DNA of 64,000 nt from Bacteroidota bacterium (GTDB lineage Bacteria > Bacteroidota > Bacteroidia > Cytophagales > Cyclobacteriaceae): the NCBI GenBank assembly GCA_018266055.1, contig JAFDYT010000004.1:112893-176892 (forward strand), in the 5' to 3' direction. The notes beneath the pieces are model-generated. The model was not told the DNA's origin and made no database searches. It saw only the letters and a list, made by a program, of their open reading frames with translations. Position numbers and translations under genes: made by a program. This document shows positions 1 through 29,552 of this stretch, in pieces. Position 1 is the first letter of the stretch, and each line of letters starts with the position of its first letter.

Positions 1-848
1 TACAAGTTGATTTTAGCTTTTGAAATTCTAAACAGGTTAATGATCAATAAGAGTATGGGTACCCACACACCTAGGATAATCAGGTTTGGAAAAATGAGCA
101 GGTAATAAGGTGCTTTCGAAGGCGGTGACCACAAGGTGCGTTCATCAAAAGTTGATTGATCGACAATGGGTGTGCCAATGGGCGCAGTAACCAATGCCTT
201 TACTGTGCCATACGTTTCGCTTTCATTGAGCACTACCTCAAACGTCAATTCACTATTGATACCCGGCATGGGTGCATCTATCGGCACAATGATCGAACCG
301 TTTTCATCGGTCTCATAACTCTCCTCACCGATTGGAAGCGGAGCATACATCCGCTGCAACTGCACTTTCAGTGATTGTTTTGCCAGCGGCTGCCCCAATC
401 CATCGGTAAGCGTTGCACGGATTTGATTGATACTGTCAACCGCTTCAACAGCAGCCGATAGATTTGCATCGGATACTTTTATTTCTACTTCCGAATCTTC
501 ATAGGTAGGTTGGTTTTCTATTTTCACCACGTAAGTAAAAACCGCAGCTTCCGTTGTCTTTGTCAGGCTACTATCGTTCAAAACAAATTTTGTTTTCCCT
601 TCCGGATTCATGGTTGCCGCACCCAGGTAGAAGAGCGAGTCGTCAGGCATTTTTTTGTACACCTGAATCACAAGACCCGAAGCGGGTTCAAATCCGTTTT
701 CGCCTTTGTATTTAGCAGAAAGAGCGATGAAGGTTTCCCGGTTCATAACCTTTGTGTATTGAGCAGACATTCTCGCTTTATGTGTAGGGCTTTGAGCGAA
801 TGCCACATTTGCGAGAAGTAAAAAAAAGTAGATGAAATAAGTTCTCAT
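1..848 (-). CDS. Secreted or membrane-anchored protein of unknown function. Its 3' end runs off the window. Last visible gene of the efflux-redox operon.
   Basis: Absent from the ORF track because it has no stop in the window. Hand translation from ATG 848-846 gives MRTYFIYFFLLLANVAFAQSPTHK (signal peptide). The frame was checked codon by codon and is open to position 3. A hydrophobic helix YYLLIFPNLIILGVWVPILLLIINLF lies near the edge. Track ORFs 156..374 and 510..821 (+) are antisense shadows. Confidence 0.7.
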   Translation of the reverse strand, partial: MRTYFIYFFLLLANVAFAQSPTHKARMSAQYTKVMNRETFIALSAKYKGENGFEPASGLVIQVYKKMPDDSLFYLGAATMNPEGKTKFVLNDSSLTKTTEAAVFTYVVKIENQPTYEDSEVEIKVSDANLSAAVEAVDSINQIRATLTDGLGQPLAKQSLKVQLQRMYAPLPIGEESYETDENGSIIVPIDAPMPGINSELTFEVVLNESETYGTVKALVTAPIGTPIVDQSTFDERTLWSPPSKAPYYLLIFPNLIILGVWVPILLLIINLFRISKAKINL

Positions 849-851
849 GGA

Positions 852-2162
852 TTATATAGGTTCAGACGGTTTTGTCAATCCTCTTTCCTCGGCCGTTTCA
901 TAAATAGGAACAACGGGAAGAAATCGCACCAGCAAGGTGATGATCAGCAATGCACTCGCCAACGTAGCCGCAGTGATAGACCATTCCATCAGTGTGGGTG
1001 TGTAATGATGCCACGACTGAGGCACACCTTCAATGGGAAGGAATGGATGGCTAAGTGTAGGGATTACAATCAGGTAGCGTTTCCACCAGGCACCCAGCAC
1101 GACTGCCAGTGCCACCAGAAACAACGGAAGAGGTTTCCTGCCTTTGCGAAACAACAATATGATCACCGGAAGAATGAGTCCACCGATGATCACCGTCCAG
1201 AACAACCCTGCGTATTCTCCTTTGAATAAACTTTGAAGATGCATGGCCTCTTCTTCGGTGGATTTGTACGTGGGAATCAGGTACTCATTAATATTAAAAT
1301 ACAAATACAGCAGGCATAGCAGTACCAGCACTTTTCCCATTTTATCAAAATGATCGTCTGTGATATAATCCTCAAGGCTGTACAGTTTGCGAAGAACAAA
1401 CATCACCACCACCACTGCGCCAGATCCTGCTACAAATGCACCGGCAATAAAGTAGGGCCCGAAGTTGGTGCTGTCCCATCCCGGTCGGTAGGTAGTTTCA
1501 AACAGCCATGCCGTTACTGTGTGAATGGCAAACGCAACGGGGATGATCATAATAGATAAGGCCTGTAGCGATAGGGCGTGTATGCGAACTTGCTTTTCAT
1601 TGCCCGACCAGTTCAACGAAAGCCTGTCATACCATTTACTTAACCAGCCTTGTTGATCCGCGTGGCGTTTCAAAATGCTGAAATCGGGCAGTAGCGGATA
1701 GTACAACAATAGAAGGCTGATGACCAGGTAAGTTGTAATCACGATAACGTCCCAGAGGATGGGCGACTGAAGTCTGCCATGCAAGAATAAATTCAGAAGC
1801 CTATCAGGTCGGCCCATATCAATGATGATGGTAATGCCCGCCATGATGATGGCAGCGACAGCGATGATTTCTGCAATGCGCGTAAGCGGTGTGCTCCAAT
1901 GTACACCGGACAGTCGCAGGATGGCGGTGATCAACGAACCTACCAAACTCACGGCAACAAAGAAGACAAAATTGGAAATGTAAATGCCCCACAGCGCATA
2001 GTCTCGCATGCACGTTATAACCAATCCAGACTTAAGTTGCTGAACGTAGGAATACATTCCTGCGAGAATAACAACTACAAGAAAGGCAACCCAAGCATTT
2101 CCCTTCCAGCCAAATTTTTTTGGCGCTAGGTCATTGATCAGTTTTTCATAGGCTGTGTTCAT
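852..2162 (-). CDS. NrfD/PsrC-family polytopic membrane anchor (quinone-interacting) subunit
   Basis: 436 aa with about 10 hydrophobic helices. The N-terminal pattern WGIYISNFVFFVAVSLVGSL is typical of NrfD/PsrC. The start overlaps the stop of the upstream FeS gene (ATGA at 2159-2162). Confidence 0.8.
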   Translation of the reverse strand: MNTAYEKLINDLAPKKFGWKGNAWVAFLVVVILAGMYSYVQQLKSGLVITCMRDYALWGIYISNFVFFVAVSLVGSLITAILRLSGVHWSTPLTRIAEIIAVAAIIMAGITIIIDMGRPDRLLNLFLHGRLQSPILWDVIVITTYLVISLLLLYYPLLPDFSILKRHADQQGWLSKWYDRLSLNWSGNEKQVRIHALSLQALSIMIIPVAFAIHTVTAWLFETTYRPGWDSTNFGPYFIAGAFVAGSGAVVVVMFVLRKLYSLEDYITDDHFDKMGKVLVLLCLLYLYFNINEYLIPTYKSTEEEAMHLQSLFKGEYAGLFWTVIIGGLILPVIILLFRKGRKPLPLFLVALAVVLGAWWKRYLIVIPTLSHPFLPIEGVPQSWHHYTPTLMEWSITAATLASALLIITLLVRFLPVVPIYETAEERGLTKPSEPI

Positions 2163-3115
2163 GGCTCTTGTGGTTTATCGACTGATTGAAACTCAGTGTA
2201 ATTCTTCAGGCCTTCTTCGAAGTCAACTACTCTGTCGCTGGGTGGCAAATAATAGACACTCGGTTGCGTGCCCAGGTTTTCCATCAGCCGGTAGCCCGCG
2301 CGGTCTTTTAAAAGTTTACTCAGTTTGAAGGATTGACCGCTGCCGTTGGTCACGGTGTCTTCATACATATCGCCAAAACTGAACACATCATTGGGGCAAG
2401 CGCTCACACAATGCGGCAGCTCACCTTTGTCGATCATGTGTGGGCAGAAGTCACACTTATCTACCGTACCTTTTTGACTGGGTACACCAGCATAGTCAGG
2501 AGTATAGGCTGCTTCTTCAACATCCTTGCCTTGCCATGGCTCAGACCAATTGAACACCCGCACAGAATAAGGACACGCAGCCATGCAGAACCTGCAGCCG
2601 ATACATCGGTTGTTATCAATCAGCACAATGCCATCTCTTCGCTTGAACGTGGCATCCACCGGGCAAACCTTGACACAGGCTGGCTCATCGCAATGCTGAC
2701 ATAACGTAGGTTGCCAATACGGTGCAGACTTTTCAGATTCCTGCATCTTATAGATTTTGATCCACGCATTTTCTCCGGTGATGTAATGGTTTTTGTTGCA
2801 AGAGCTTTGGCACTTCCTGGCGTTTCGGCATTTAGCCAAATCAACCACCATCACAAATTTCCGGTTGGGAAATCCTTCGCGCGGATTGTAAGCCGATTTA
2901 CTTTCATGAGCATGCGAAACAGCCGAGGCCGGCACCTGCATCAACGTGCCATCGGTGGACATCAGCTCAACAGTTTCTGCTGATTCCGTACTTTCCGACT
3001 TTCCAAATACCTTGGTCAACAATGCTCCGCCCGCTGCGGTGAGTAAACCAAATTTCAAACCCTGCTCCACAAAGGTGCGCCTGGATTTCTGATCACTATT
3101 TTTTTCTTTTTCCAT
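2159..3115 (-). CDS. Tat-exported 4x[4Fe-4S] ferredoxin-type subunit (NrfC/PsrB/HybA-like)
   Basis: 318 aa. Twin-arginine leader SRRTFVEQGLKFGLLTAAGG. Cys clusters CRNARKCQSSC, CQHCDEPACVKVCP, CIGCRFCMAACP and CDFCPH...CVSACP. Confidence 0.85.
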   Translation of the reverse strand: MEKEKNSDQKSRRTFVEQGLKFGLLTAAGGALLTKVFGKSESTESAETVELMSTDGTLMQVPASAVSHAHESKSAYNPREGFPNRKFVMVVDLAKCRNARKCQSSCNKNHYITGENAWIKIYKMQESEKSAPYWQPTLCQHCDEPACVKVCPVDATFKRRDGIVLIDNNRCIGCRFCMAACPYSVRVFNWSEPWQGKDVEEAAYTPDYAGVPSQKGTVDKCDFCPHMIDKGELPHCVSACPNDVFSFGDMYEDTVTNGSGQSFKLSKLLKDRAGYRLMENLGTQPSVYYLPPSDRVVDFEEGLKNYTEFQSVDKPQEP

Positions 3116-3121
3116 AGGTTC

Positions 3122-3379
3122 CTATTTTGAAAAAGCTTTTGGTTTTAGCCAACTCAGCAGCGACTGGTTCGACATTTTTTGTTCAACGACCTTCGCATTT
3201 TTCAACTCGCTTGTTCGCACTTTTACAGCCTTGCCCTCTGCGGTAAGCATGGTTGTGAATTCGGTATCCTCCACTTTATCATCGGAAGGATTTGCCGGCA
3301 GTTTCCCTGCAACGCTCAGGAATGGGAGCGTGAGGCCTGCACCTAAAAATTTTCTTCGGGAGAGTGGATCGTTTTTCAT
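3122..3379 (-). CDS. Small Tat-signal protein of unknown function
   Basis: 85 aa. Leader SRRKFLGAGLTLPFLSVAG. The predicted mature part has no Cys or His. It sits 6 nt upstream of the FeS gene. Confidence 0.6.
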   Translation of the reverse strand: MKNDPLSRRKFLGAGLTLPFLSVAGKLPANPSDDKVEDTEFTTMLTAEGKAVKVRTSELKNAKVVEQKMSNQSLLSWLKPKAFSK

Positions 3380-3474
3380 GTGTTAATATTTATTTTTTAA
3401 GGTCACATGGAATGGCCGGATTATCATACCGTTGTGTGAGGAGCATCTTAATGGCCATTTCATGGGATTCATTT

Positions 3475-4314
3475 TTAAAAATTCCAAAGTCGGTTGATGT
3501 TGAATCCAATCAGGAATTGTCTTTCGGAGAGTTTATTTTCATTCAGGAAGTAATTGGCTTGTGGTAAAATGCGATTGTAGTTGCTCACAAAAACCTGAAA
3601 TGCGTGCGAGCCAGTTGACATTTCTATGCCAAGTGCCAGCCCAGGGTTACTCGAAAAATCACCAAAGGGTTGATTATAGTCGATGATGATTGCAGTCTTG
3701 TCGCTGATATTTGCTTTTCCACCCACAGCCAATGCAAACACATTGTTTGAAACGGAAGGATCGACAAGGTTGTAGTGCGCGAAACTGGGAGCAACCTGAA
3801 GTGATATGGCTTGGTTAAATCTTCTCATAATCAACAGTTGACCGAAATAAGAAAAACGATTGGATTCTTTGGGGAAGAAGGAAGCCGATCTTGCATCAAT
3901 GGCCGTGTTGCCATAAAAGGCGATGCTGACCGGTACTTTACCCGACCGCGTCTGGCGGATCAAACCCACTTTGATATTAAAATCCTGCAAGCGATAATCC
4001 TTGGTGGTACCAAACCCGATGGTGATGCGATCGGAAATGGAGTAAGCGAGCGCTAGCCGGATATTGGATGGCCCCCAAAAACCAGCTAAGTCATTGTTGC
4101 CACTGTTGATTAAACCAAAGCGATGTTGAATATCGAACTGCAACGTCTTCTTTGGGTTGAGAACACCCGTGACGTTGTCAATCAACCATGCACTTTGAAA
4201 GGCATTGCGCTGAGGTTTATCTTTTTTTTCTGCCAGTGAGTCGGCTTCCTGTGCAAACAGATTGTGAGACAATACTAAAAGAAGAATGAAAGAAAATGTA
4301 TTGAAGCGTTTCAT
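3475..4314 (-). CDS. Small outer-membrane beta-barrel protein (family not recognised)
   Basis: 279 aa. Signal peptide MKRFNTFSFILLLVLSHNLFAQ, alternating amphipathic strands, and a C-terminal NINRLWNF ending in an aromatic residue. Confidence 0.65.
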   Translation of the reverse strand: MKRFNTFSFILLLVLSHNLFAQEADSLAEKKDKPQRNAFQSAWLIDNVTGVLNPKKTLQFDIQHRFGLINSGNNDLAGFWGPSNIRLALAYSISDRITIGFGTTKDYRLQDFNIKVGLIRQTRSGKVPVSIAFYGNTAIDARSASFFPKESNRFSYFGQLLIMRRFNQAISLQVAPSFAHYNLVDPSVSNNVFALAVGGKANISDKTAIIIDYNQPFGDFSSNPGLALGIEMSTGSHAFQVFVSNYNRILPQANYFLNENKLSERQFLIGFNINRLWNF

Positions 4315-4334
4315 GATTGTATTATTTTAGTTTA

Positions 4335-4775
4335 TTAATTGTTTTGAGCACCTTCATCGATCCACTTTTTAATGAGCCCAATTTGCAAGGGCGAAAGAGG
4401 CATTGCGGGAGGCATATTTTTACCATCCGCGCTTTTCCACTGTAGCATCTCTACAAGTTCACTACCCTCGGAATCGCCCGGAACGATTCCTTTCCCATCG
4501 TCCAATAGAGAACTGAAGGCAACCTCCTTTCGCAAATCGGGGTTTACATTGCCGGGATTGTGACATCCGGCACATTGCCCGCTTAGAATTGGTTGAATGT
4601 CCAAGGCAAAAGAAACATTGTCTTTTACCGGTACTGATAGCTCGGGCGTTATTTTGTCATTGTCACACGCAGTGAGTAAAAAGCCTAAAGCCAGTGCTGA
4701 AGGCAAAATGATTTTGGTTGACGGTTTCATTTGTTTTGTATTTAGATTTATAAATCGTTTTATCGTTGTGTCCAT
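4335..4775 (-). CDS. Lipoprotein with a single c-type haem motif (cytochrome c domain)
   Basis: 146 aa. CAGCH haem-binding motif (SGQCAGCHNPG). Lipobox LLTAC. The likelier start is the internal MKPSTKIILPS at 4730. Confidence 0.7.
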   Translation of the reverse strand: MDTTIKRFINLNTKQMKPSTKIILPSALALGFLLTACDNDKITPELSVPVKDNVSFALDIQPILSGQCAGCHNPGNVNPDLRKEVAFSSLLDDGKGIVPGDSEGSELVEMLQWKSADGKNMPPAMPLSPLQIGLIKKWIDEGAQNN

Positions 4776-4797
4776 GTTTTATATAAGGTGGCGGTTC

Positions 4798-5898
4798 TCA
4801 CATTTTCATCCCACTCATCGCACCGCCACCTTGTTTTACTTTCCATGCGCTGTTTAGCAGAAAACCACCACGGGTCACTATCTTGTCGCCCGGTGATAGT
4901 CCGCTGAGTATTTCCACTTCGCGTTTGTTCTGAATGCCAATGTCCACCATGTGTTGTTCGAACATGCCGTCACTGGTTTCCACCCAAACGATTACGTTGT
5001 TTTCCAAAAGCAAGGCAGACTTGGGAATGACCAGGGTCTCTTTTCGGTTGCGCTTCAAGTACACATACGCCATCAGGCCAGGCTTATAATTTCCTTTCTG
5101 ATTGTTAACTTTGATGCGCATGAGATTGATCTTCGTGTTGTCCTCCAATCGCGGGTTATCGTACACAATCTCACCTTTGATGCGTTCGCCCGGAAAAGCT
5201 TCAAACTCCACTTCAAGTGTTGGTGACTGTCTTAGGTAATTGATTTCACTGCTGTACAATTGGGCTTCGATCCACAAACTACTTAAGTCTGCCAGCCTGA
5301 ACATGGGGCTACCGATCTCAACGTACTCACCCTCGCGCACGAGCAGGTCTGATAAATACCCACTGCGGTTAGAGTAGAAGGTGATCAGTGGAGAAATGCT
5401 TTTCGTCTTTTCAAGCTCGTTGATTTGTTTTTCCGTCAGCGTCCAAAGCTCAAGGCGTCTCCGGGCTGCTTCGACCATTCTTTGGGTAATCTCTTTTTGA
5501 GTAGTAGCTTTTTTATTTTCATCGATGGCCAGCAGGTATTCGTTTTCGTATGACAACAGTTCTTCGCTATAGATACTGTATAGTGGATCTCTGGTTTTTA
5601 CGAATGTGCCAGGGTTGCGCACAAATAGTTTGTCGACTCTGCCCTTTACACGGGAGCTGACTAGGTTGATGTTCCGTTCATCCACCGCTGCGGTGCCAAT
5701 CAAGGTTGTCTCTTCAAAGATTGTTTTGATTTGCGCATTGTCGATCTGAATGTTAGCCACGACTCTTTCCTGATCGGTTAACGAAAGCATCGCTTCATGC
5801 GCATCGCCATGTCCTTCGTGCGACTGTTCTGGTTTCTGTCTACAGGAGGCCGAGAGGGCGAGAATCAATAGGGTTATATAAATCGCATATCGTTGCAT
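4798..5898 (-). CDS. RND efflux periplasmic adaptor (MFP, CusB-like), lipoprotein
   Basis: 366 aa. Lipobox LALSASC, N-terminal HEGHGDAHE, hairpin/lipoyl/beta-barrel adaptor pattern, and a Met-rich tail GGGAMSGMKM. Confidence 0.8.
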   Translation of the reverse strand: MQRYAIYITLLILALSASCRQKPEQSHEGHGDAHEAMLSLTDQERVVANIQIDNAQIKTIFEETTLIGTAAVDERNINLVSSRVKGRVDKLFVRNPGTFVKTRDPLYSIYSEELLSYENEYLLAIDENKKATTQKEITQRMVEAARRRLELWTLTEKQINELEKTKSISPLITFYSNRSGYLSDLLVREGEYVEIGSPMFRLADLSSLWIEAQLYSSEINYLRQSPTLEVEFEAFPGERIKGEIVYDNPRLEDNTKINLMRIKVNNQKGNYKPGLMAYVYLKRNRKETLVIPKSALLLENNVIVWVETSDGMFEQHMVDIGIQNKREVEILSGLSPGDKIVTRGGFLLNSAWKVKQGGGAMSGMKM

Positions 5899-5901
5899 AA
5901 C

Positions 5902-7137
5902 TCACTCGGGTTTAACCAAACTTTCACGATCCATTAAGTAACCGGCATCCAGCGCCACCTCATCATCAGCCTCTAAGCCACTCAGTACAGCTACACGTCC
6001 TAGCGAAACCGGACCAAGCCTCACGAACCTGATTTCCAAAATGTGAGTACCTTCTTCGGTTTGCCCCACTTTTTTCCATACGGCCTGCCTTCCACCCAAA
6101 TACAGAATGCTGGTTGCAGGCAACGTCAACGACTCTTTTGTTTTTGGGTAGATGGTAGCTTCCAATAGCGAATTGATACGGAGGTTTCTATCTCCATTTG
6201 ATAGATACACTCGAACCTGAATGAACTTCTGACCTGTGGCATATTGTGGCTCGATGTATCGCACAATGGTCTTTATCGGTTTGTCAGGAGCCAACTCGCT
6301 CACCATTGTTATACTGTCGTTCATCGCTATTTCATCCTGATGAAGGTTGTCCACGGATAGAATACCCCACACCTCACGAAGGTCATTGATCCAAAAGAGC
6401 GTTTGCCCTGGCGAAACGTATGCTCCTTCACGGACTGGTCCGGACGCTGAAGTTGTAGAAGATGAAGTCTGCTGTTTTTGTTGGGAACCCGAACCCATGC
6501 CACCACCCATTTTACTTCCTGCTGAAGAAGTCATTGCTGTTCCCGTTGGGGGCATTTGGGTTGATGGGGAATAAAAAATATATCCGTCATACAGACTGTA
6601 GATGGAAAGTGTAAAGAGCGTTTTACCCGATTCGATAATTTGTTTTATTTGAGCATCGGTTATTCCAAGCAGTTTAAGTTTGTGAGCTGCATGTTTTGTA
6701 ATTTCACCTTCAGGGTCAACTCTATGTGCATACAGTAGTTCTTCCTGATTGGTGTTAAGGTCGGGGCTGTATAGTTCCAGTATTTTATCGCCTTTGCGCA
6801 CAAATTGATTTTCATATTTTACATAAAGCTTTTCGATGCGGCCACCCACCCGTGCTGCTACTTGGTTACTCCTGCGTTCATCAAGGGCAATAAATCCATA
6901 CGCGTTAACCGGACTTGATTGAAGTTGCTTTACCGGCTTTACTAACGCCTGGCTTGAAATAACTTTCCGGTTAGTTGGTTCCGCTGAAATGGAAAGCGCT
7001 TTTTGGCCTGCTTCATCTTGCGGATGGGTTCCATGTTTGCTGTGCTGATCGGGCGATTCTTTTTTACACCCGTAAAAGAGTATGGATAAACCGACCATTA
7101 TATATAGCGTGATTTTTTTCATGATGTTATTCTTCAA
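5902..7137 (-). CDS. RND efflux periplasmic adaptor (MFP, CusB-like), second paralogue
   Basis: 411 aa. Lipobox ILFYGC. Internal low-complexity insert GSKMGGGMGSGSQQKQQTSSSTTSASG. It overlaps the pump gene by 11 nt. Confidence 0.8.
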   Translation of the reverse strand: MKNNIMKKITLYIMVGLSILFYGCKKESPDQHSKHGTHPQDEAGQKALSISAEPTNRKVISSQALVKPVKQLQSSPVNAYGFIALDERRSNQVAARVGGRIEKLYVKYENQFVRKGDKILELYSPDLNTNQEELLYAHRVDPEGEITKHAAHKLKLLGITDAQIKQIIESGKTLFTLSIYSLYDGYIFYSPSTQMPPTGTAMTSSAGSKMGGGMGSGSQQKQQTSSSTTSASGPVREGAYVSPGQTLFWINDLREVWGILSVDNLHQDEIAMNDSITMVSELAPDKPIKTIVRYIEPQYATGQKFIQVRVYLSNGDRNLRINSLLEATIYPKTKESLTLPATSILYLGGRQAVWKKVGQTEEGTHILEIRFVRLGPVSLGRVAVLSGLEADDEVALDAGYLMDRESLVKPE

Positions 7138-9058
7138 TATCCAATACTTTGAGTGTTCCGGTTTTTTTCAATTCATATTCCCTCACCACCTGGTAGAATA
7201 CCGGCAGCACCACTAGCACGAAAATGGTAGAAGAGACCAAGCCGAACACAAACGGTATGGCAATAGGCTTCATCACATCACTGCCTGTGCCTGTAGAGAT
7301 GAGTATCGGGATTAATCCCAGGATGTTAGCCAGTACGGTCATCAGCAACGGCCTTACGCGTGGCACTGCGCCTTCGAAAATGGAGTCTTGCAAGTTTTGT
7401 CTATTGATGGACTCATTGGCAGCCTTCTTACTTTCCACTAGTCGTTTGATAGAATCATTCATGTAGGCGATCATCAAAACCCCCGTCTCTACAGCTACTC
7501 CGAACAAGGCGATAAATCCCACCGCTACTGCTACAGAAAAGTTTACGTTATAGAAGTACAAAGAGTAAACTCCGCCAACCAAGGCAACCGGTACGCTGAC
7601 AAACACAATGATTACTTCACGAAATGTGTGGAACGTGATGTATAAAATAATTCCGATAACCAACAGCGTAATGGGGATGATGATCATCAATCGTCTTTCG
7701 GCACGCACCTGGTTTTCGTACTGGCCGCTCCATTGGATATAGTAACCTTTGGGGAGTTTTTTAAATTGAGTATCGATTTTTGCTTTTGCTTCATTTACAA
7801 CGCTTCCCATATCGCGGCCCCGCACATTGAACAACACCGTTCCGCGAAGCCTCGTGTTTTCCGAATTGATCATGGGTGGCCCTTCTACTACTGAGATAGT
7901 GGCCAGTGCAGATAGGGGAACAACACCGTACGAGGCTGTTTGCACCGGCACACGCTTGATCTCATCGAGGTCGTTTCTGTAATCTTGTGCGAGTCTGACT
8001 GTAATAGTAAAACGCTCTCGTCCTTCAACTGTGTTTGTGAGGATCATACCACCCAAAGCCATTTCAATAACCATGTTCACATCTTCTATGCTGAGTGCAT
8101 AGCGGGCAATTGCTTCCCGGTTGATTTTTATATTGAGGTATTTCCCACCGGTGAGTTGCTCTAGATAGAGATCGGTTAGTCCGTCAATACCTCTTAGCGC
8201 TTTTTCAATTTCGGCCGTGAGGATGAATAGAGAGTCGAGGTTTGATCCGAATACCTTTACTCCAACATCCGTGCGGATGCCAGTAGAAAGCATGTTGATC
8301 CGGTTTATGATTGGCTGTGTCCATCCCACCACCACCCCGGGAATACGAACGCGCTCGTTCATCTCCGCGATGAGCTTTTCTTTCGTCATCCCTTCTCTCC
8401 ATTTTGATTTTGGTTTGAGCACCACAATGGTTTCAATCATGGACATGGGAGAGTTGTCGGTGGCTGTGTACGCACGGCCTGCCTTGCCCAATACATTTTC
8501 TACTTCGGGGATACTTTTTAATATGCGATCCTGTATTTGTATTATTCGTTTAGCTTCCGCGTTGGAAACATCAGGTAAGGTGACGGGCATCATCAGTAAC
8601 GAACCTTCATCCAGTGGTGGCATGAACTCGGTGCCAAGATTGAGTACAAAAGGAGTGCTGCCAGCAACCAGTACAAAGCAGATTGCGAGTGTTACATACT
8701 TAAATCGCTGGCACAGGCGTATAACCGGTGTATAAATCCTCACAAAGAAGTTCGACACCGGATTGCGGCTCTCCGGTACTAACCGTCCTTTTACAAATAC
8801 CCTCGCCAGCATGGGCGATACGGTGATGGCCAACAAGGCCGCACCCAGCAGCGAAAATGTTTTGGTCAATACCAACGGAGAAAATAATTTGCTTTCTTGG
8901 CCTGTGAGGAAAAGAACCGGGGCAAATGAGACGATCATAATGATCACCGAGAAGAAGATAGATCGTCCAACAGTTTTGGATGACTCTTCTATAATGGCCA
9001 CACGCTCTTCATCAGAAATTTCCCGCGTGTTCCCAATTCGTTGTTTACTTGTTGCCAT
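7127..9058 (-). CDS. cusA: CusA/CzcA-family heavy-metal RND pump, C-terminal fragment (TM5-TM12) of a frameshifted gene
   Basis: 643 aa, collinear with the CusA region that starts at the TM4-TM5 cytoplasmic loop (FFSVIIMIVSFAPVLFLTGQESKLF ... VRPLLMTVLANILGLIPIL). Confidence 0.85.
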   Translation of the reverse strand: MATSKQRIGNTREISDEERVAIIEESSKTVGRSIFFSVIIMIVSFAPVLFLTGQESKLFSPLVLTKTFSLLGAALLAITVSPMLARVFVKGRLVPESRNPVSNFFVRIYTPVIRLCQRFKYVTLAICFVLVAGSTPFVLNLGTEFMPPLDEGSLLMMPVTLPDVSNAEAKRIIQIQDRILKSIPEVENVLGKAGRAYTATDNSPMSMIETIVVLKPKSKWREGMTKEKLIAEMNERVRIPGVVVGWTQPIINRINMLSTGIRTDVGVKVFGSNLDSLFILTAEIEKALRGIDGLTDLYLEQLTGGKYLNIKINREAIARYALSIEDVNMVIEMALGGMILTNTVEGRERFTITVRLAQDYRNDLDEIKRVPVQTASYGVVPLSALATISVVEGPPMINSENTRLRGTVLFNVRGRDMGSVVNEAKAKIDTQFKKLPKGYYIQWSGQYENQVRAERRLMIIIPITLLVIGIILYITFHTFREVIIVFVSVPVALVGGVYSLYFYNVNFSVAVAVGFIALFGVAVETGVLMIAYMNDSIKRLVESKKAANESINRQNLQDSIFEGAVPRVRPLLMTVLANILGLIPILISTGTGSDVMKPIAIPFVFGLVSSTIFVLVVLPVFYQVVREYELKKTGTLKVLDIEE

Positions 9059-10334
9059 CGTTCGGTTGGGTTAGAAGTACTTTGTTTGTTAATGACCGGT
9101 AAGCATTTTCGGCCATTACAATTCCCGGATCAACGACATCGCCAATGGCCAAGGCAATTCCACCCAACGACATAATGTTGGACGTTACTCCAAAAAGCCG
9201 CATGAGTATGAAGCCAATGAGCACCGAGAGCAGAATAGAAGCAATGGCTACCAAGCCGCTTCTGAAATGGAATAGAAAGAGCACTACCGTAACCGATACA
9301 ATTAGGATCTCCTGCCACAATGCTTCTGAAAGAGTATCGATTGAGTCATTGATGAGTCCACTGCGGTCGTATGCAACATGAAACTCAACTCCTTCAGGAA
9401 GGCCCTTCTTAAATTCCTCTATTCTCACCTTCACGCGCTCGATCACATCTTTGGCATTCTCGCCATAGCGCATCACAACAATTCCGCCAACCGCTTCACC
9501 TTCCCCGTTTTCTTCGATGATACCCAATCTTAATTCACCACCCATCTGGATATGGGCAACGTCCTTCAACCGAATTGGTATAGAGCGATACGTTCCAACA
9601 GAAATGTTCTCAATATCTTCTGGTGTTTTGATGTACCCAAGCCCGCGGATCATGTAGCCCATGTCGTTCATCTCAAAGAGACTGCCTCCTACATCACGGT
9701 TATTATTGACAACCGCTTTCGCTACATCCATCAAGGGCACTCCATAATAAATGAGTTTATGCGGGTCAATGGCTACCTGGTATTGTTTTTGAAATCCTCC
9801 GTATGAGGCCACCTCGCTTACCCCTTTTACATTCTGGAGGGCAAACTTTACATACCAGTCCTGCAAGGCTCGCAATTCACCGAGGTTATAGCCATCTCCT
9901 TTTAATGTGTACCAGAATATGTGGCCGATGCCCGTGCCATCGGGGCCAAGGGTAGGGGTGATGCCGGGCGGAAGAAATTTCTGTGCATAGTTCAGTCGTT
10001 CTAATACCCGAGTACGCGACCAATAGATTTCCGCATCGTCCTCGAAAATGACGAAGATGAAACTCATGCCGAACATGGAGGCGGCACGTATGGTTTTTAT
10101 TTTGGGAATGCCCTGCAGGTTGGTAACCAGTGGATACGTGATCTGGTCTTCCATGATCTGCGGGTTGCGCCCCATCCATTCGGTGAACACAATCACCTGG
10201 TTTTCGGACAGATCGGGAATGGCGTCCACCGGGGTTTCTTTGATGGAATAAATTCCACCAATAACAATCATCACAATCCCGATTAAAACCATAAATCGAT
10301 TGTGAATTGCCCAACTGATTATTTTTTCTACCAT
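9045..10334 (-). CDS. cusA: CusA/CzcA-family heavy-metal RND pump, N-terminal fragment (TM1-TM4)
   Basis: 429 aa. MVEKIISWAIHNRFMVLIG start and the conserved TM4 motif GGIALAIGDVVDPGIVMAEN. It ends in a different frame 14 nt inside the next ORF. Confidence 0.85.
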   Translation of the reverse strand: MVEKIISWAIHNRFMVLIGIVMIVIGGIYSIKETPVDAIPDLSENQVIVFTEWMGRNPQIMEDQITYPLVTNLQGIPKIKTIRAASMFGMSFIFVIFEDDAEIYWSRTRVLERLNYAQKFLPPGITPTLGPDGTGIGHIFWYTLKGDGYNLGELRALQDWYVKFALQNVKGVSEVASYGGFQKQYQVAIDPHKLIYYGVPLMDVAKAVVNNNRDVGGSLFEMNDMGYMIRGLGYIKTPEDIENISVGTYRSIPIRLKDVAHIQMGGELRLGIIEENGEGEAVGGIVVMRYGENAKDVIERVKVRIEEFKKGLPEGVEFHVAYDRSGLINDSIDTLSEALWQEILIVSVTVVLFLFHFRSGLVAIASILLSVLIGFILMRLFGVTSNIMSLGGIALAIGDVVDPGIVMAENAYRSLTNKVLLTQPNDGNK

Positions 10335-10428: not shown

Positions 10429-11211
10429 TTAATGTTGACAGATTAGATAACCTTTGCTTCCTTTCGTATCTTCGATCGTATAGATTGCATTTTGCCCAAG
10501 TGCGTTTGGGCTTTCATCAAATCGGTATACTTCTTTTATGCTCATGCCTTTGGCTTTTTTCATATTGCCGGCCCCAACAATTTTGTTATCATGAATGTCA
10601 AAAGCACGCACATACCCTTTGGCGTGTATTTCTGAGAGCACTTCCATCAGCGATTGGTTGCGATGCTCCGTTCGTTGAAGTTTTTTAAACTCGCGCACCG
10701 AAAAGCCCGTAACCTTTCTGAATTGTGAAGAAAGGTGCTGCACATTGGTGTAGTGTAGCCTGTCCGCAATTTCACTAAGTGTTGATTGACCTTCGCGCAA
10801 TAGTCTTTTTGCTCGTTCAACGCGCTGCCGGATAAGGTATGCCTCAATAGTAATTTTCTCTACTCGCTTAAATAGCTTACTGAGGTTATGGTAATTTCTC
10901 GATAGCCTTTTGCCGAGGTGTACCGAGAATTTCTCTACCCTGTCAAGTCGCTCCAGTTCATCTAGATATCTTTTTGCCTCAAGTTTAATCGCCTCGGTAG
11001 TTTGCTCATCCTTGGTGTGAATGATTTGAAGATTAAATTCATTCAATCTCTTTTCCAGCAAGGGTAGAATATGGTCATTGTCCGATAAAAAGGATACCTG
11101 CCCGAGTTCAATCTTGACGCGTACCACATTGAACTGATTTAAAATCTGCCGCACCACGTAAATGCAGCGATCGCAAAGCATGTTTTTAATATGCAACTTG
11201 AATATTTTCAT
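10429..11211 (-). CDS. AraC-family regulator with an N-terminal HMA-like CxxC domain and an extra C-terminal domain
   Basis: 260 aa. The N-terminus is MKIFKLHIKNMLCDRCIYVVRQIL. The AraC HTH region is LSEIADRLHYTNVQHLSSQFRKVTGFSVREFKK. A further ~75 aa of unknown function follow. Confidence 0.8.
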   Translation of the reverse strand: MKIFKLHIKNMLCDRCIYVVRQILNQFNVVRVKIELGQVSFLSDNDHILPLLEKRLNEFNLQIIHTKDEQTTEAIKLEAKRYLDELERLDRVEKFSVHLGKRLSRNYHNLSKLFKRVEKITIEAYLIRQRVERAKRLLREGQSTLSEIADRLHYTNVQHLSSQFRKVTGFSVREFKKLQRTEHRNQSLMEVLSEIHAKGYVRAFDIHDNKIVGAGNMKKAKGMSIKEVYRFDESPNALGQNAIYTIEDTKGSKGYLICQH

Positions 11212-21335: not shown

Positions 21336-23348
21336 TTAAAACCTCATCCGCTGAATTCTCACCGCATTCAATATTGCCAGCAAAGCTACGCCCACATCGG
21401 CAAACACAGCTTCCCACATGGTGGCCAGGCCACCAGCACCGAGTATTAAGACTGCTGCTTTTACAACAAAGGCAAGTGTAATGTTTTGCCAAACAATGCG
21501 CTTGGTGGTTTTGCCTATGTTGATGGCCATCGGAATCTTTGATGGCCTATCATCTTGGATTACTATATCAGCCGTTTCAATGGTGGCATCGCTGCCAAGC
21601 CCGCCCATCGCTATGCCTGCATCGCTCAATGCCACTACAGGCGCATCGTTTACGCCATCGCCCACAAAGGCAACGCTTTCGCCTCGTGCTTTTATTTCTT
21701 TTACCTTGTTCACTTTGTCTTCGGGCAGTAAGTCGCCAAAGGCATTGTCGATGCTCAGTTCTTTGGCAACAAAATTCACCACGGAACTTTTATCGCCACT
21801 GAGCATGGTTGTCTTCACGCCCAAGCGATGGAGTTGTTCGATGGCCGTTTTTGCATCTTCTTTTATTTGGTCGGCAATGGTGATGTAGCCTGCAAATTTT
21901 TTATCGTAGGCCATCGCGATGATGGTGTAAACGATGCTGCTTACATCTACATCGTGCTTGATGCCGAACTTGCTCATGAGTTTGAAATTGCCCACCAGCA
22001 ATTCTTTTCCGTTCACTGCGGCTTTCAATCCATGTCCCGCTATTTCTTCCACGCCCGTCAATTCGATTTTGGAATTTACATCGCCCACATATTGGTGAAT
22101 AGCGGTGGCAACGGGATGTGTGCTTTTGCTTTCCAATGCGTTGACCAATTCCAATATTTCCTTTTCATCAAATCCAGACTGAATATTTACTTGTTGCACT
22201 TTAAAAACTCCCTCGGTGAGTGTGCCTGTTTTGTCCATCACCACATTTTTGATGGATGCCACGATGTCCAAATAATTACTGCCTTTGAAGAGGATGCCGT
22301 TGCGCGAAGAAGCACCAATGCCACCAAAGTAGCCGAGTGGTATCGAAATCACCAATGCGCAGGGACAAGAAATAACTAAGAACACGAGCGAGCGGTAGAG
22401 CCAGTCTCGGAACTGATAATCTGAAACAAAGAAATAAGGCAACACACAAATCAGCAATGCAAGCACCACCACCACAGGTGTATAGTACTTGGCAAAAGTG
22501 CGTATGAACAATTCTGTTTTTGCTTTTTGGGCAGTTGCATTCTGAACCAAATCTAAAATTTTTGAAAGCTTGCTATCGGTATAGGCCGTTGTGACTTTCA
22601 CCAACGAAACGGTGTTGAGGTTAATCATGCCTGCCAATACGGTCTCCTCTTTTTGTTTTGTATCAGGTTTGCTTTCGCCCGTGAGCGCGGCCGTATTGAA
22701 AGAGGCCGAATCGGATAGCAACACACCATCCAACGCTAATTTCTCGCCCGGCTTTAATTGAATGATATTTCCGATAGAAACAGATTCCGCTTTCACGGTG
22801 CGTACGTTGCCTTCTTCCACAACAGTAACTTCATCAGGCCGCTGGTCGAGCAATGCTTTGATGTTCCCTTTGGCTCTCTTTACAGCTAATGTTTGAAAAA
22901 CTTCTCCGATCGCATAGAACAACATCACGGCCACACCCTCAGGGTATTCGCCTATGGAAAATGCACCGATGGTGGCAATGCTCATCAATAAAAATTCGGT
23001 GAAGAATTCTTTTTTGACAATTGCCTTCCATGCTTCTTTTATTACAGGAAAGCCTACGGGCAGATAGGCGAGCAGATACCACGCCAATCTAACCCAGCCC
23101 TTAAAAAAAGAAGGCTGCCAATAATTATCGAAAGCAATCGCGATAAGCAGCAACGCCAAACTTATCAATGATGGCGTAAACATTTGAAACGTGCTTTGCG
23201 CTTTTGGAGAATGGTCGTGGCCGTCCGATTCGGTGTGCCTATCGGTTTTGCCTGAAGTTTTGGCATTAATTTTTTCCTCCAACGAACAACAAGTCATGTG
23301 GCCGTGTTCATCGTAGGTGTGCTTGTGGTGGGGGTCTGTGCTAGTCAT
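21336..23348 (-). CDS. P1B-type heavy-metal ATPase, Zn/Cd/Pb-like (His-rich N-terminus, no classical HMA domain)
   Basis: 670 aa. Motifs SCPCALVISIP, DKTGTLT and GDGVNDAP. The last TM carries FADVGVALL, the Asp-type motif seen in ZntA-like pumps. The N-terminus reads HHKHTYDEHGHMTCC...DGHDH. Confidence 0.85.
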   Translation of the reverse strand: MTSTDPHHKHTYDEHGHMTCCSLEEKINAKTSGKTDRHTESDGHDHSPKAQSTFQMFTPSLISLALLLIAIAFDNYWQPSFFKGWVRLAWYLLAYLPVGFPVIKEAWKAIVKKEFFTEFLLMSIATIGAFSIGEYPEGVAVMLFYAIGEVFQTLAVKRAKGNIKALLDQRPDEVTVVEEGNVRTVKAESVSIGNIIQLKPGEKLALDGVLLSDSASFNTAALTGESKPDTKQKEETVLAGMINLNTVSLVKVTTAYTDSKLSKILDLVQNATAQKAKTELFIRTFAKYYTPVVVVLALLICVLPYFFVSDYQFRDWLYRSLVFLVISCPCALVISIPLGYFGGIGASSRNGILFKGSNYLDIVASIKNVVMDKTGTLTEGVFKVQQVNIQSGFDEKEILELVNALESKSTHPVATAIHQYVGDVNSKIELTGVEEIAGHGLKAAVNGKELLVGNFKLMSKFGIKHDVDVSSIVYTIIAMAYDKKFAGYITIADQIKEDAKTAIEQLHRLGVKTTMLSGDKSSVVNFVAKELSIDNAFGDLLPEDKVNKVKEIKARGESVAFVGDGVNDAPVVALSDAGIAMGGLGSDATIETADIVIQDDRPSKIPMAINIGKTTKRIVWQNITLAFVVKAAVLILGAGGLATMWEAVFADVGVALLAILNAVRIQRMRF

Positions 23349-23368
23349 AATGGAGGTTTCTAATTACA

Positions 23369-24574
23369 TTACTCTTCTTCTTCCGAGTTTTTCATTTTAG
23401 AGAGAATGGCATACGCATTCTTCACTACCACCTGATTGTCTGCGTTAAAATCAGGCGGAAGGATTACTTCAGTATAGCCCATTTCACTGTTTCCTACTTG
23501 TATTTCCATCATTGTAAAATGAAACTCGCTGGCGTGTTGCTCTTTGCTTTCGTCTTTTAATGCGCTGTGGGGCTGCTCTTTCAATTGGTAGAAAATGTAT
23601 TTTTTCCCTTGATAGTCAATGATGGCTTTATCCGGCAAGGCTGGCACTTCGATGCCGCCCGTTTCAACAACAGCCTTCAGGTACATGCCCGGCAGCAAGT
23701 TGGTATCTTCTCTATCAATGTGGCAGTGAACACGTATGGTGCGATCAAGTCCGATTTGGCGACCCAACAAATACACGGTGGCCATTCTTTCCTTGGTTTC
23801 GTTGGCAAGAGTGAACCGAACTTTTTGTCCGATCTTCAGTTTGGGCACATCTTTCTCGAATACAGTAAGTTCAGCGTGCAAGTGCTCGGTATCAACAATT
23901 TCGAACAGGATGTCACTGGGGTTTACAAATTTGCCGATGTTGACGTTCACCTGCGTGACGTAACCATTGATGGGCGAGTAGAGTTGGATGGTGCTTGAAA
24001 TTTTCCCCTCATTTAAGGAGGAGAGGTTAATGTTTATCATTTTCAATTTTTCGGCAAGGCCGTTAGCTTTTGCTTGCCAACTTGCGTACGTTGTTTTGGC
24101 TTGTTGCAATGTCTTTTGGGCATTCACGTTTTCTTTCGCCAAATCTAGTTGCCGATCGTAATCCACTTTAGCAAAGTCAGATTGATTTTTAGCTTCTATG
24201 TAATCTTGTTGCATTTGTATGAAATCAAGATTTTCCATAGTTGCAATCGCCTGGCCTACCTTTACTCTTGATCCTTGCAGCAACGGTGTACTTTTTAAAA
24301 ATCCTCCCAGCGGAACGGAAATGCTGACCATCTGCTGAGGGGGCACATCCAGTTTGCCATTTACTTTTACCGTGCCGCTGATTTGTTTGCTTTCAATTTT
24401 GCCCAATTCAATGCCGGCCGTTTTGTATTGAGCTTCGGTGAACTCCACGGTATTCGCTTCTTCGCTGTGATGCTCTTCGGTGGTCGCCTCTTTTGCGCTC
24501 TTGCTTCCGCACGACATAGTTAAAGCTACTCCAATAAAAATGGAGAGTATAGAAATTGATTTAGATGTAGTCAT
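23369..24574 (-). CDS. czcB: RND efflux periplasmic adaptor (CzcB-like)
   Basis: 401 aa. Lipobox LTMSC, N-terminal EEHHSEE, and adaptor hairpin and barrel regions. Confidence 0.8.
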   Translation of the reverse strand: MTTSKSISILSIFIGVALTMSCGSKSAKEATTEEHHSEEANTVEFTEAQYKTAGIELGKIESKQISGTVKVNGKLDVPPQQMVSISVPLGGFLKSTPLLQGSRVKVGQAIATMENLDFIQMQQDYIEAKNQSDFAKVDYDRQLDLAKENVNAQKTLQQAKTTYASWQAKANGLAEKLKMININLSSLNEGKISSTIQLYSPINGYVTQVNVNIGKFVNPSDILFEIVDTEHLHAELTVFEKDVPKLKIGQKVRFTLANETKERMATVYLLGRQIGLDRTIRVHCHIDREDTNLLPGMYLKAVVETGGIEVPALPDKAIIDYQGKKYIFYQLKEQPHSALKDESKEQHASEFHFTMMEIQVGNSEMGYTEVILPPDFNADNQVVVKNAYAILSKMKNSEEEE

Positions 24575-24582
24575 GGTCGATC

Positions 24583-25809
24583 TTATTTAGTGCCTGATAA
24601 AAATTGAATGTAAATAATGCTTTGGTTGTAGTCGTTTAAGGTTTGTAAATAACCTTCCTTAATGGCAATGGCATTTCGTACCCCCAGCAGATATACGGCA
24701 AAGTCAATTTCGCCCTCGCGAAAGGCAACTTGCGATTGCTTCAGTATCAGTTCTGCATTTGGTAAAGCGGAAGTGCGGTAATACTCCAAACTGTTTCGAT
24801 TCTTTCCATACAGTTGCGCAGCCTGTTGTGATTGTCCCTGTATGATTTTCTGCTGATTGGCGTAATTACTTTCCGCAGCCTGACGGGTAAAGGCTGCGGC
24901 CTTCACTCTGCCCTGATACGGAACAAACCACAGTGGAATGGAGATACCTGCGAAGAACCCGGAGAACCTGGTGTTGTCGTTAGCCACTGTTCCGTTCTCA
25001 ACGTTGATCGTATTGATCAGTGTTTGATTGAAATACCCGATCATTAAATCGGGGGCGAACTTTGCCGTTTCCACTTTCTTCAGGCTTTTCGCTACGTCTA
25101 CTTGCTGCCGCACATACGACAGAAAAGGGTTTGTGAGTATCGTTGTGTCTTGCGATGCATCGAATGGAATCTCGGTTAGCTCATCTTCCGAAATGTCCGG
25201 AAGTTGCTCACTGTTGAGTAGCGTCTGCAATTGCGTACGCAAAATGGTGGCCGTTGATTCATTTTGGCGAAGTTGATTTCTCACCTCATTACGTTGTGTT
25301 TCAGCGGTGGTTTGCTCCAATAGTTTGCTTTCACCCGTCTTGTAGCGTAATGAAGCCGACTTTAAGAACCCTTCGTAAATGCTGTCTTGCTGAAGCAAGA
25401 GTTGATGTCGCGCTTTTACAAAGGCAAGTTGATAGTAAACTTGCTTTACCTGATAAACCAAGTCGTTTTCAGTAAATGCTTTTTTCAATTCAGATGAAGC
25501 AAGCAACGATCGGTTCAGGGAGGCTTGGCTGCCTAAAATGGTAAGAGGAATACTTTGTGTAATGGAAATGTTGTTATCATTTTTAGCAAAGCTATTATAC
25601 TGCCCATACTGCAACGACACATTCGTCTTGGGCAGATCAAATCCTGTTTTCTTCAATTGCCTTTGCGATTCCACTTCATAAGCTACCGCCCTGATGCCCG
25701 CGTTATTTTTTAAAGCGACATCAATGGCTTGTTGAACTGTTAACTTGGTGGACTGGCCAAGCCCCGCAAAAGAGAAACTAGTAATGGTGATGATGATTAA
25801 TATTCTCAT
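24583..25809 (-). CDS. czcC: TolC-family outer-membrane efflux factor (CzcC-like)
   Basis: 408 aa. Signal peptide and a two-fold repeated coiled-coil/beta pattern. It overlaps the pump gene by 4 nt. Confidence 0.8.
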   Translation of the reverse strand: MRILIIITITSFSFAGLGQSTKLTVQQAIDVALKNNAGIRAVAYEVESQRQLKKTGFDLPKTNVSLQYGQYNSFAKNDNNISITQSIPLTILGSQASLNRSLLASSELKKAFTENDLVYQVKQVYYQLAFVKARHQLLLQQDSIYEGFLKSASLRYKTGESKLLEQTTAETQRNEVRNQLRQNESTATILRTQLQTLLNSEQLPDISEDELTEIPFDASQDTTILTNPFLSYVRQQVDVAKSLKKVETAKFAPDLMIGYFNQTLINTINVENGTVANDNTRFSGFFAGISIPLWFVPYQGRVKAAAFTRQAAESNYANQQKIIQGQSQQAAQLYGKNRNSLEYYRTSALPNAELILKQSQVAFREGEIDFAVYLLGVRNAIAIKEGYLQTLNDYNQSIIYIQFLSGTK

Positions 25810-28940: not shown

Positions 28941-29179
28941 ATAGGTCAGTGATTAAAATTTAGATTTGGAAGGACTGTTGCTATGATGAACAAGAATAAA
29001 AGAAGCAAGCCCAAGAGTATCCACAAAGCGTAATGGATAATCACTGTGAGAATACTTTTCTTTTGTTGCTTTTTCCGCTTTCTCCGATTGTTCATAATAA
29101 GCCCTAACCATCTTAACCAAGGCTACCGTTGCCTCGGGAAGAAATTTATCGTCATGGAGACGATTGATACTGTAGGAGC

Positions 29180-29500: not shown

Positions 29501-29552
29501 GGTGTAAAGATAAGTTAAAAAATGATGCAATGAAGTTGCAACAAAAATGAGT

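Follow-up and report, generated by a model that had tools for sequence, protein, structure and literature searches.

We analysed a 64,000-nt stretch of contig JAFDYT010000004.1 (assembly GCA_018266055.1), here called the window, and coordinates count from window position 1. On the minus strand, an 85-amino-acid (aa) open reading frame (ORF), here the small gene, stands directly 5' of genes for an iron-sulfur (FeS) protein and an NrfD-type membrane protein. With moderate confidence, we propose that the product of the small gene is exported and serves as a small accessory protein in an electron-transfer module of the quinol:cytochrome c kind. The gene is conserved and under selection, its product is a distant relative of the N terminus of the adjoining FeS protein, and it is inherited with particular lineages of that protein. 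We refer to the FeS and NrfD genes and the genes that travel with them, including one for a 282-aa protein (p282), as the cassette.

Conservation of the small gene

The small ORF starts with MKNDPLSRRKFLGAG and has zero Cys and zero His residues over its full length. A word-indexed search gave 67 candidate homologues, all 67 with E values of ≤0.01, that were 57 to 95 aa long and 60 to 96% identical. Those with names were all entered as "hypothetical protein" and came from Cyclobacteriaceae or Cytophagales metagenome-assembled genomes. We then defined a close-locus set of 30 loci, one genome per species, with 24 loci of the Cytophagales type and 6 labelled Flavobacteriaceae or uncultured Bacteroidetes. 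The initial annotation of this DNA had allowed that the ORF might not be conserved beside homologous FeS/NrfD pairs; in the close loci, we found the small ORF in 30 of 30.

We calculated pairwise ratios of nonsynonymous to synonymous substitution rates (dN/dS) for the Cytophagales-type copies by the Nei-Gojobori method, keeping pairs with a dS of 0.05 to 2 (76 pairs when the whole protein was compared, 75 when only the mature part was). The median dN/dS was 0.14 for the whole gene, 0.19 for the leader (107 pairs), and 0.06 for residues 39 to 85. We concluded that the small ORF is a real gene under purifying selection and no chance frame.

The leader of the small protein

A twin-arginine translocation (Tat) signal is marked by the motif S/T-R-R-x-F-L-K, after which come an h-region of weak hydrophobicity and, just ahead of the cleavage site, a basic residue. 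In the small protein, we found SRRKFLG, a 15-residue h-region, and then K-LPA, a leader prediction made from the sequence. Most members likewise have a basic residue and then (L/M)-x-A after a short, weakly hydrophobic h-region, and TatC is encoded in the window's genome. The leader looks like a cleavable Tat signal, and the predicted mature peptide would be about 55 residues long and basic, with a hairpin and a short helix. These results bear out two descriptions in the initial annotation, that of an 85-aa protein with a twin-arginine leader and a predicted mature part with neither Cys nor His and that of a separate Tat leader (SRRTF) on the FeS subunit.

The leader could also be read as a membrane anchor. 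If it stayed uncleaved, the small protein would be a membrane subunit held beside NrfD in the manner of a Rieske protein, with the hairpin and a tryptophan-containing C-terminal helix (the W-helix) in the periplasm. Consistently with this, P19, F20, and L21 are invariant in the hydrophobic stretch of 21 close homologues, and a canonical AxA cleavage site is not present in every member. Against it, the hydrophobic stretch spans no more than about 15 residues, many of them Gly, Thr, Ser, or Pro, the stretch is followed by the basic residue and (L/M)-x-A in most members, and P-F-L is lost in distant members. We consider such an anchor somewhat unlikely and prefer a cleaved, exported peptide.

Relationship between the small protein and the FeS N terminus

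We compared an alignment of 31 small proteins with an alignment of 41 FeS proteins using hhalign and obtained a match over 68 columns with 97.7% probability and an E value of 1.7e-12, in which small-protein columns 5 to 75 correspond to FeS columns 4 to 75. On the window's genome, the small-protein profile had two matches only, the small ORF itself and the FeS N terminus (first 66 profile positions; E value of 1.1e-7). A narrower profile run against 401 class genomes gave 12 matches, of which 5 were frames of 86 to 102 aa and 7 were the N termini of frames of 308 to 334 aa. The small-protein profile also matched 32 of the 35 FeS N termini of the wider set described below.

The region common to both proteins consists of the twin-arginine leader and the hairpin. 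The hairpin consensus is EKVKVLTxDGKLVEVD in the FeS proteins (ETVELMSTDGTLMQV in the window) and xIKMLTxDGKLVEID in the small proteins (EFTTMLTAEGKAVKV in the window). A C-terminal xNxExxxW motif is shared by the small proteins and is absent from FeS; it reads SNQSLLSWLKPK in the window protein and SNKEVLEWM, SHDELLTWV, and TNTELQNWI in distant members. These comparisons suggest that the small protein is a paralogue, well supported but distant, of the N-terminal ~75 residues of the FeS protein, that is, of its leader and beta-hairpin.

A paralogue of this kind could have arisen when the 5' end of the FeS gene was partly duplicated and could now be decaying without a function, and the restriction of the FeS homology to the N-terminal ~75 residues would agree with that. 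We find this barely credible. The mature part has a dN/dS of 0.06, the family comprises at least 548 clusters, the C-terminal W motif absent from FeS is kept in distant members, and the gene is stably inherited within three FeS clades.

The 548 clusters come from an exhaustive HMMER search of 1.84 billion cluster representatives, in which they matched at an E value of ≤1e-3 and 60 of them at ≤1e-10. Among the best 150 relatives, 147 were 61 to 130 aa long. None of the 13 members that we scanned scored above a Pfam or NCBIfam cut-off (best E values of 0.008 to 0.3, to unrelated models), and we therefore regard the small proteins as an unnamed family. A search of PDB sequences with the small-protein profile had a best E value of 0.067, to a MarR/SarZ regulator, which is not significant. 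We also considered the small protein as a metal ligand. This was ruled out, since Cys and His are absent from the protein and neither of its two Met residues is conserved among the distant members.

In a side observation, 12 repeated stretches (FQGFQTASGKAVTVSEDALLKAKARMLELE) of P0101, a 1,595-aa eukaryote-like protein, matched positions 37 to 76 of the small-protein profile, which cover the hairpin and helix. These repeats resemble the BRC repeats of BRCA2-type proteins. The likeness is probably convergence on a hairpin-helix peptide motif; we treat it as a lead on the binding mode and make no claim of homology.

The FeS, NrfD, and p282 proteins

The FeS protein matched Fer4_11 with an E value of 5.3e-22 (78.3 bits against a cut-off of 26.2). 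Its best NCBIfam model was DsrO (NF045797), which it matched over model positions 12 to 234 of 235 with 191.9 bits, not reaching the cut-off of 200. Among proteins of solved structure, those nearest to it in sequence are ArrB, PsrB, and the FeS portion of ActB from alternative complex III (ACIII). In the twin-arginine leader SRRTF, R13 is invariant in the 41 sequences.

The FeS protein has 15 invariant Cys residues. Groups II to IV are canonical (C139/142/147/151, C171/174/177/181, and C221/224/236/240), and group I consists of C96, C102, and C106, reading C-x2-A-x2-C-x3-C. Alignment to ArrB and PsrB puts Ala99, which is nearly invariant in the 41 sequences, at the place of the second Cys in CxxCxxCxxxC. 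The loss of the second Cys in such a motif is the classic [3Fe-4S] signature. The pattern fits a four-cluster subunit of the NrfC/PsrB type, the beta subunit of the complex iron-sulfur molybdoenzymes, with three [4Fe-4S] clusters and one predicted [3Fe-4S] cluster. By PsrB/DmsB numbering, the group I cluster is presumably the one farthest from the membrane, where a catalytic subunit normally docks. An AlphaFold 2 (AF2) model of the FeS protein, made from the 41 sequences, had a mean predicted local distance difference test (pLDDT) score of 50.3, too low for placing the N-terminal hairpin, and showed only strands 48 to 52 and 58 to 62, with low confidence.

The NrfD protein matched PF03916 over profile positions 5 to 308 of 313 (99.5 bits against a cut-off of 25.8). 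Its best NCBIfam model was DsrP, at 149.4 bits and below the cut-off of 350. In the alignment of p282, we found no conserved Cys, His, or Met. The AF2 model of p282 (mean pLDDT, 82.8) shows two immunoglobulin (Ig)-like sandwiches and a C-terminal helix, and the matches to this model in a fold search were all generic, to folds of the tandem Ig, macroglobulin, and cytokine-receptor-like kinds, with TM-scores of ≤0.33 on the query. We conclude that p282 is probably a structural subunit.

Distribution and inheritance of the cassette

We examined the neighbours of the small gene in the close loci. The cytochrome c lipoprotein and the DUF5777 barrel were present in 30 of 30 loci, FeS in 29, NrfD in 27, p282 in 25, and a second monohaem cytochrome c (cytc2) in 24. 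All the misses fall at contig ends (L019, L014, L021, L007, L030, and L028).

For a wider search, we used p282 as a paralogue-free marker and found the cassette family in 29 of the 401 sampled class genomes, often in two or three copies. The wider set is made up of 31 fetched loci that hold 35 FeS genes of the cassette lineage. NrfD lay 3' of FeS in 33 of the 35 and p282 in 31; cytc2 directly followed p282 in 22, and some of the remaining cassettes had it at another position. In 7 of the 35 cases, a stand-alone small ORF stood directly 5' of FeS; it was absent from the other 28. Since the small protein is missing from these 28 cassettes, the module works without it. The small protein is an optional add-on, and FeS, NrfD, p282, and a monohaem cytochrome c are the conserved core, to which the cytochrome c lipoprotein and the DUF5777 barrel are frequent additions. 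The initial annotation had proposed the small protein as the only third partner of the pair; this does not stand, since p282, which it overlooked, and cytc2 are the genes kept with FeS and NrfD. The co-occurrence of the small protein with NrfCD-like pairs, raised there as a check, held in the close loci up to the contig ends and extended to only 7 of the 35 more distant FeS genes.

Where the small gene is present, it keeps to the FeS gene. The FeS gene is directly 3' of the small ORF in 36 of 37 small-bearing loci, and the remaining locus, L019, ends at a contig edge. In L041 (L041:6094-7231, minus strand; G298:C60), a small-FeS pair has no NrfD, p282, or cytochrome downstream and ends a gene string, one of whose products is a 533-aa protein that carries CTSCH and is sorted by the type IX secretion system (T9SS). 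The persistence of this pair without NrfD points to FeS rather than NrfD as the partner of the small protein.

We built a quick maximum-likelihood tree from 63 FeS proteins, in which cassettes with the small gene fell into three supported clades of 29, 4, and 2 rows. The presence label of the small gene changed 3 times on this tree, against a mean of 20.9 when shuffled. This pattern suggests that the small gene is stably inherited with particular FeS lineages.

Tandem FeS-NrfD-p282 triplets, two per genome, were seen in L034, L038, L049, and L050. Both the window's genome and L006 (L006:10830-11093) have a gene for a DUF3144 protein of 86 to 87 aa next after cytc2; this protein may be an eighth cassette member in some genomes.

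A probable quinol:cytochrome c module without a catalytic subunit

We searched the whole genome, which is 100% complete, for PF00384 (molybdopterin) and found no match, so an unlinked molybdoenzyme partner is unlikely. The earlier description of an FeS/NrfD pair without a molybdopterin partner is thus upheld at the level of the genome. By analogy with known systems, the cassette most likely encodes a quinol:cytochrome c module of the NrfCD type without a catalytic subunit. Its core would oxidise menaquinol at NrfD, and electrons would then pass through the three [4Fe-4S] clusters and the one predicted [3Fe-4S] cluster of FeS to c-type cytochromes.

NrfCD-type modules are a main route from the quinone pool to periplasmic redox partners in bacteria without a bc1 complex, and NosGH of clade II nos clusters is an NrfCD-type quinol dehydrogenase module without a catalytic subunit. 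NrfCD pairs that have no catalytic subunit and donate to c-type cytochromes are already in print, in the passage of PMC3534657 on Melioribacter roseus Mros1571/1572. Like that pair, the module here has a four-cluster FeS protein with a Tat leader and an NrfD protein, no molybdopterin subunit, and presumed c-type cytochrome partners. Unlike the pair as that passage gives it, the module always adds an Ig-like anchored protein and often a DUF5777 barrel, and some lineages also have the small paralogue.

The module also resembles ACIII (ActABCDEF; 6F0K, 6BTM, and 6LOD), a quinol:cytochrome c oxidoreductase with an NrfC-like FeS domain, an NrfD-like subunit, and the monohaem cytochrome c ActE, and ActB chains are among the PDB sequence matches of our FeS protein. 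In contrast to ACIII, the FeS protein has 318 aa and no molybdopterin-like B1 domain (ActB chains have 933 to 1,039 aa), there is one NrfD gene and not two, neither the pentahaem ActA nor ActD is present, and each cytochrome has one CxxCH. The cassette thus has none of the fused ActB, the two NrfD-like subunits, and the pentahaem ActA that mark ACIII. The Cys missing here belongs to the first group, which we take to lie far from the membrane. The [3Fe-4S] cluster of ACIII, in contrast, adjoins the quinol site in the part of PMC8076601 that deals with it. Table 1 of PMC8076601 gives ActB of ACIII and QrcC, its two cytochrome-linked members, one [3Fe-4S] and three [4Fe-4S] clusters each, and the predicted Cys pattern of our FeS protein equals this set.

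DsrO and DsrP of DsrMKJOP are the best-scoring named families for the FeS and NrfD proteins, both under the curated cut-offs. We found no DsrM, DsrK, or DsrJ in the scanned part of the operon, and Table 1 of PMC8076601 lists four [4Fe-4S] clusters for DsrO, unlike the three-Cys first group here. QrcABCD, Nhc, and Hmc are alike in having an FeS and NrfD pair that exchanges electrons with periplasmic c-type cytochromes, and QrcC has one [3Fe-4S] cluster. They differ in using multihaem cytochromes, with Qrc also having the large, cofactor-less QrcB, whereas the module here has monohaem cytochromes and small or Ig-like extras. The QrcC and QrcD scores were far under the cut-offs (126 against 400 and 80 against 570).

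A literature search for DUF5777 found no paper, and searches on NrfCD or NrfD-like proteins, Bacteroidota, copper, and extracellular electron transfer found, among the papers listed, none on the cassette or the small protein. We conclude that the module is a variant of the known NrfCD/ACIII kind and that the small-protein family is undescribed. What is new here is the paralogy of the small and FeS proteins, the size of the small-protein family, its optional and clade-bound distribution, the predicted three-Cys first cluster, and a link to a CxxC-AraC regulator that is independent of cus. The cassette defines an unnamed Bacteroidota form of such modules, in which the Ig-like anchored subunit is constant and is accompanied by a monohaem cytochrome.

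The initial annotation saw the small protein in the place of a catalytic subunit. In the strongest form of this idea, it would stand structurally where a catalytic (A) subunit is missing and could, for instance, be all that is left of the Tat leader of a molybdopterin subunit. The small gene does lie 5' of the FeS gene, where A-subunit genes often sit in operons of the psrABC type. There is also a precedent in the passage of PMC13059093 on Qrc, in which the catalytic-type subunit QrcB has lost its cofactors. Nevertheless, the small-protein profile matches the FeS N terminus and not a molybdopterin protein, and the small protein has no Cys for an FS0 cluster. Among longer proteins, a search found no longer or fused relative (0 of 104 candidates), which is weak evidence. 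Most homologous cassettes do without the small protein; because it is absent 5' of 28 of 35 homologous FeS genes, it cannot be a generic substitute for a catalytic subunit. We judge the A-subunit role to be very unlikely.

Proposed role of the small protein and points against it

We propose instead that the small protein is an exported accessory subunit. After Tat export and leader cleavage, the basic peptide of ~55 residues would bind the FeS subunit, or the interface of FeS and p282, as an extra subunit. Binding would occur by beta-strand addition through the same kind of hairpin as the FeS N terminus carries. We propose FeS as the binding partner because the small protein copies the FeS arm and is co-inherited with FeS. 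A family derived from the FeS arm gives a concrete hypothesis on the way in which complexes of this kind acquire additional subunits and on the reason for a Tat leader on a peptide without cofactors.

The Tat leader and the position of the gene would also suit an escort for export or assembly, which would pair with the folded FeS protein in the cytoplasm, cross the membrane with it via Tat, and remain outside the working complex. A cofactor-free protein has no evident need of Tat, the two proteins have related leaders and genes 6 bp apart, and L041 has the small-FeS pair without NrfD. However, we take the known Tat proofreading chaperones to be cytoplasmic and leaderless, and 28 of 35 homologous FeS proteins do without the small protein. 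We regard an escort as improbable and favour the accessory subunit.

Several observations weigh against an accessory subunit of a quinol:cytochrome c module. The association of the small protein with the FeS/NrfD complex is predicted, from gene adjacency and co-inheritance, and most cassettes of the wider set lack the small gene. We infer both the direction of electron flow and the end acceptor of the module. The second leader Arg is replaced by Lys in about 9 of 31 aligned small proteins and by Ser in one homologue, so that Tat targeting is not certain for every member of the family. The invariant P-F-L inside the hydrophobic stretch of the close clade is unusual for a discarded leader and fits an uncleaved anchor. 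A BLASTP comparison of the single pair, the small protein and the FeS protein of the window, gave no alignment, and leader composition contributes part of the profile-profile score; for these reasons, we call the homology well supported but distant. RNA-Seq contigs from libraries X15, X16, and X19 match the operon at ≥99% identity in patches only, at depths of 2.6 to 8.8, with DNA carry-over possible. Finally, the copper link discussed below is seen only in the Cytophagales clade, whose related genomes are not independent cases; the cus-type adaptor genes that precede the cassette in the window occur in 0 of 6 Flavobacteriaceae-type loci.

Organization of the gene string

In the ORF list, a tightly packed string of genes runs along the minus strand from an AraC-type regulator down to p282 (Table 1). 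The spacing is 6 bp between the small and FeS genes and 3 bp between NrfD and p282, and the FeS and NrfD genes overlap by 4 bp. The initial annotation had placed the NrfC/NrfD-like pair at 2159 to 3379; these positions cover the small ORF and the FeS gene, and the NrfD gene lies outside them. The stop codon of p282 is just beyond the window start, and we fetched the flanking DNA, which showed p282 to be complete.

Table 1. Genes of the cassette and of the string around it. Positions are those of the window unless they carry the locus prefix L033.
Feature	Position	Strand	Description and basis
DUF3144 protein, 86 aa	L033:8178-8438	-	Next after cytc2, outside the window
cytc2, monohaem cytochrome c, 136 aa	L033:8465-8875		CQSCH; just past the window start, after p282
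p282, 282 aa	3-848	-	Signal peptide, two Ig-like beta-sandwich domains, RTxWSPP motif, C-terminal membrane helix
NrfD/PsrC-type quinone-interacting membrane subunit, 436 aa	852-2162	-	Nearest DsrP (Pfam/NCBIfam)
FeS subunit, NrfC/PsrB type, 318 aa	2159-3115	-	Nearest DsrO; Tat leader (family searches, alignments)
Small protein, 85 aa	3122-3379	-	Twin-arginine leader SRRKFLG, probable cleavage near LPA/N, beta-hairpin TMLTAEGKAVKV, C-terminal SNQSLLSWLKPK
DUF5777 beta-barrel, 279 aa	3475-4314	-	Predicted outer membrane (Pfam, 5e-72)
Monohaem cytochrome c, 146 aa	4335-4775	-	Lipoprotein-type leader, CAGCH
CusB-type resistance-nodulation-division (RND) adaptor	4798-5898	-	Pfam/NCBIfam
CusB-type RND adaptor	5902-7137	-	Pfam/NCBIfam
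CusA-type RND pump, C-terminal half	7127-9058	-	Second of two ORFs
CusA-type RND pump, N-terminal half	9045-10334	-	First of two ORFs
AraC-type regulator	10429-11211	-	N-terminal CxxC (heavy-metal-associated [HMA]-like) domain; operon head

We scanned positions 700 to 5000 for promoters and terminators with models that do not cover Bacteroidota promoters. Promoter-like sites numbered 9, where 7.3 ± 2.6 would be expected, and terminator-like sites numbered 2, where the expectation was 4.6 ± 1.8; in the 95-bp gap 5' of the small gene, neither a promoter-like nor a terminator-like site was found by the same scan, within the reach of those models. One X15 contig covers positions 3295 to 3474; this is an RNA library in which DNA carry-over is possible, and we do not count the contig as proof of transcription. 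In a related strain in run X17 (90 to 99% identity), 84 bp of the 95-bp spacer between DUF5777 and the small gene are missing (window 3374 to 3457), so most of this spacer is dispensable.

Copper context and other end points

Two cus-type adaptors stand directly 5' of the cassette on the same strand in 20 of the 30 close loci. In the Flavobacteriaceae-type loci, cus genes are absent, and the upstream place is taken by a gene for either a dihaem cytochrome c or a protein with an EB_dh domain. L024 has no cus genes, and a 43%-identical orthologue of the CxxC-AraC regulator lies directly 5' of its cassette, which suggests that the cassette itself answers to this regulator. In the Cytophagales clade, the CxxC-AraC regulator would switch the module on together with the cus copper pump, and such co-regulation would make a link between the end acceptor and copper probable. 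Placement behind this regulator and the cus pump suggests that, in aerobic Cytophagales, the handling of copper may be tied to periplasmic electron transfer driven by quinol, a connection so far unexplored.

The CusA-type pump is split into overlapping ORFs for an N-terminal part of 429 aa and a C-terminal part of 643 aa. Because the same split (429 and 645 aa) is found in the Ohtaekwangia-labelled locus L011 (L011:100-3310), the split appears to be a conserved feature of the pump and not a frameshift from sequencing. We found no gene for an outer-membrane factor in the cus operon of the window.

In distant cassettes, the slot between DUF5777 and FeS holds other genes. In L036 (L036:4351-5160) and L038 (L038:5095-5919), we found a T9SS (Por_Secre_tail) protein of about 270 aa, with CTCH in L036 and CxxCH in L038. 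In L037 (L037:5729-7325), the slot holds a 327-aa multihaem cytochrome with MtrC-like domain matches and a cytochrome b561. These slot genes hint at electron transfer to the cell surface. The cassette family looks like a general cell-envelope electron module that is coupled to different end points in different lineages, and copper is likely the theme in the clade of the window.

A more ambitious reading would join these elements into a copper-induced, envelope-spanning conduit of seven genes. Electrons would run from menaquinol through NrfD/FeS and the monohaem cytochromes c to the DUF5777 outer-membrane barrel. There, Cu(II) in the periplasm or at the cell surface would be converted to Cu(I), which is what Cus-type pumps export, for a split CusA pump without an outer-membrane factor of its own. 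The small protein would then be a Tat-exported "detachable docking arm," a free copy of the FeS hairpin with its own W-helix, which would recruit a partner to the [3Fe-4S] exit face. We consider this joint reading, taken as a whole, quite unlikely. If it were true, the respiratory modules of Bacteroidota would have a widespread class of extra subunits, as yet unnamed, with the small family as its marker.

The window also carries a second metal-export block on the minus strand (21336 to 32105), with a P-type ATPase, an adaptor, an outer-membrane efflux protein, and an intact RND pump of 1,044 aa. This block is followed by DUF6660, a 408-aa protein without a family, a Rieske [2Fe-2S] protein, and a di-haem oxidoreductase (DHOR).

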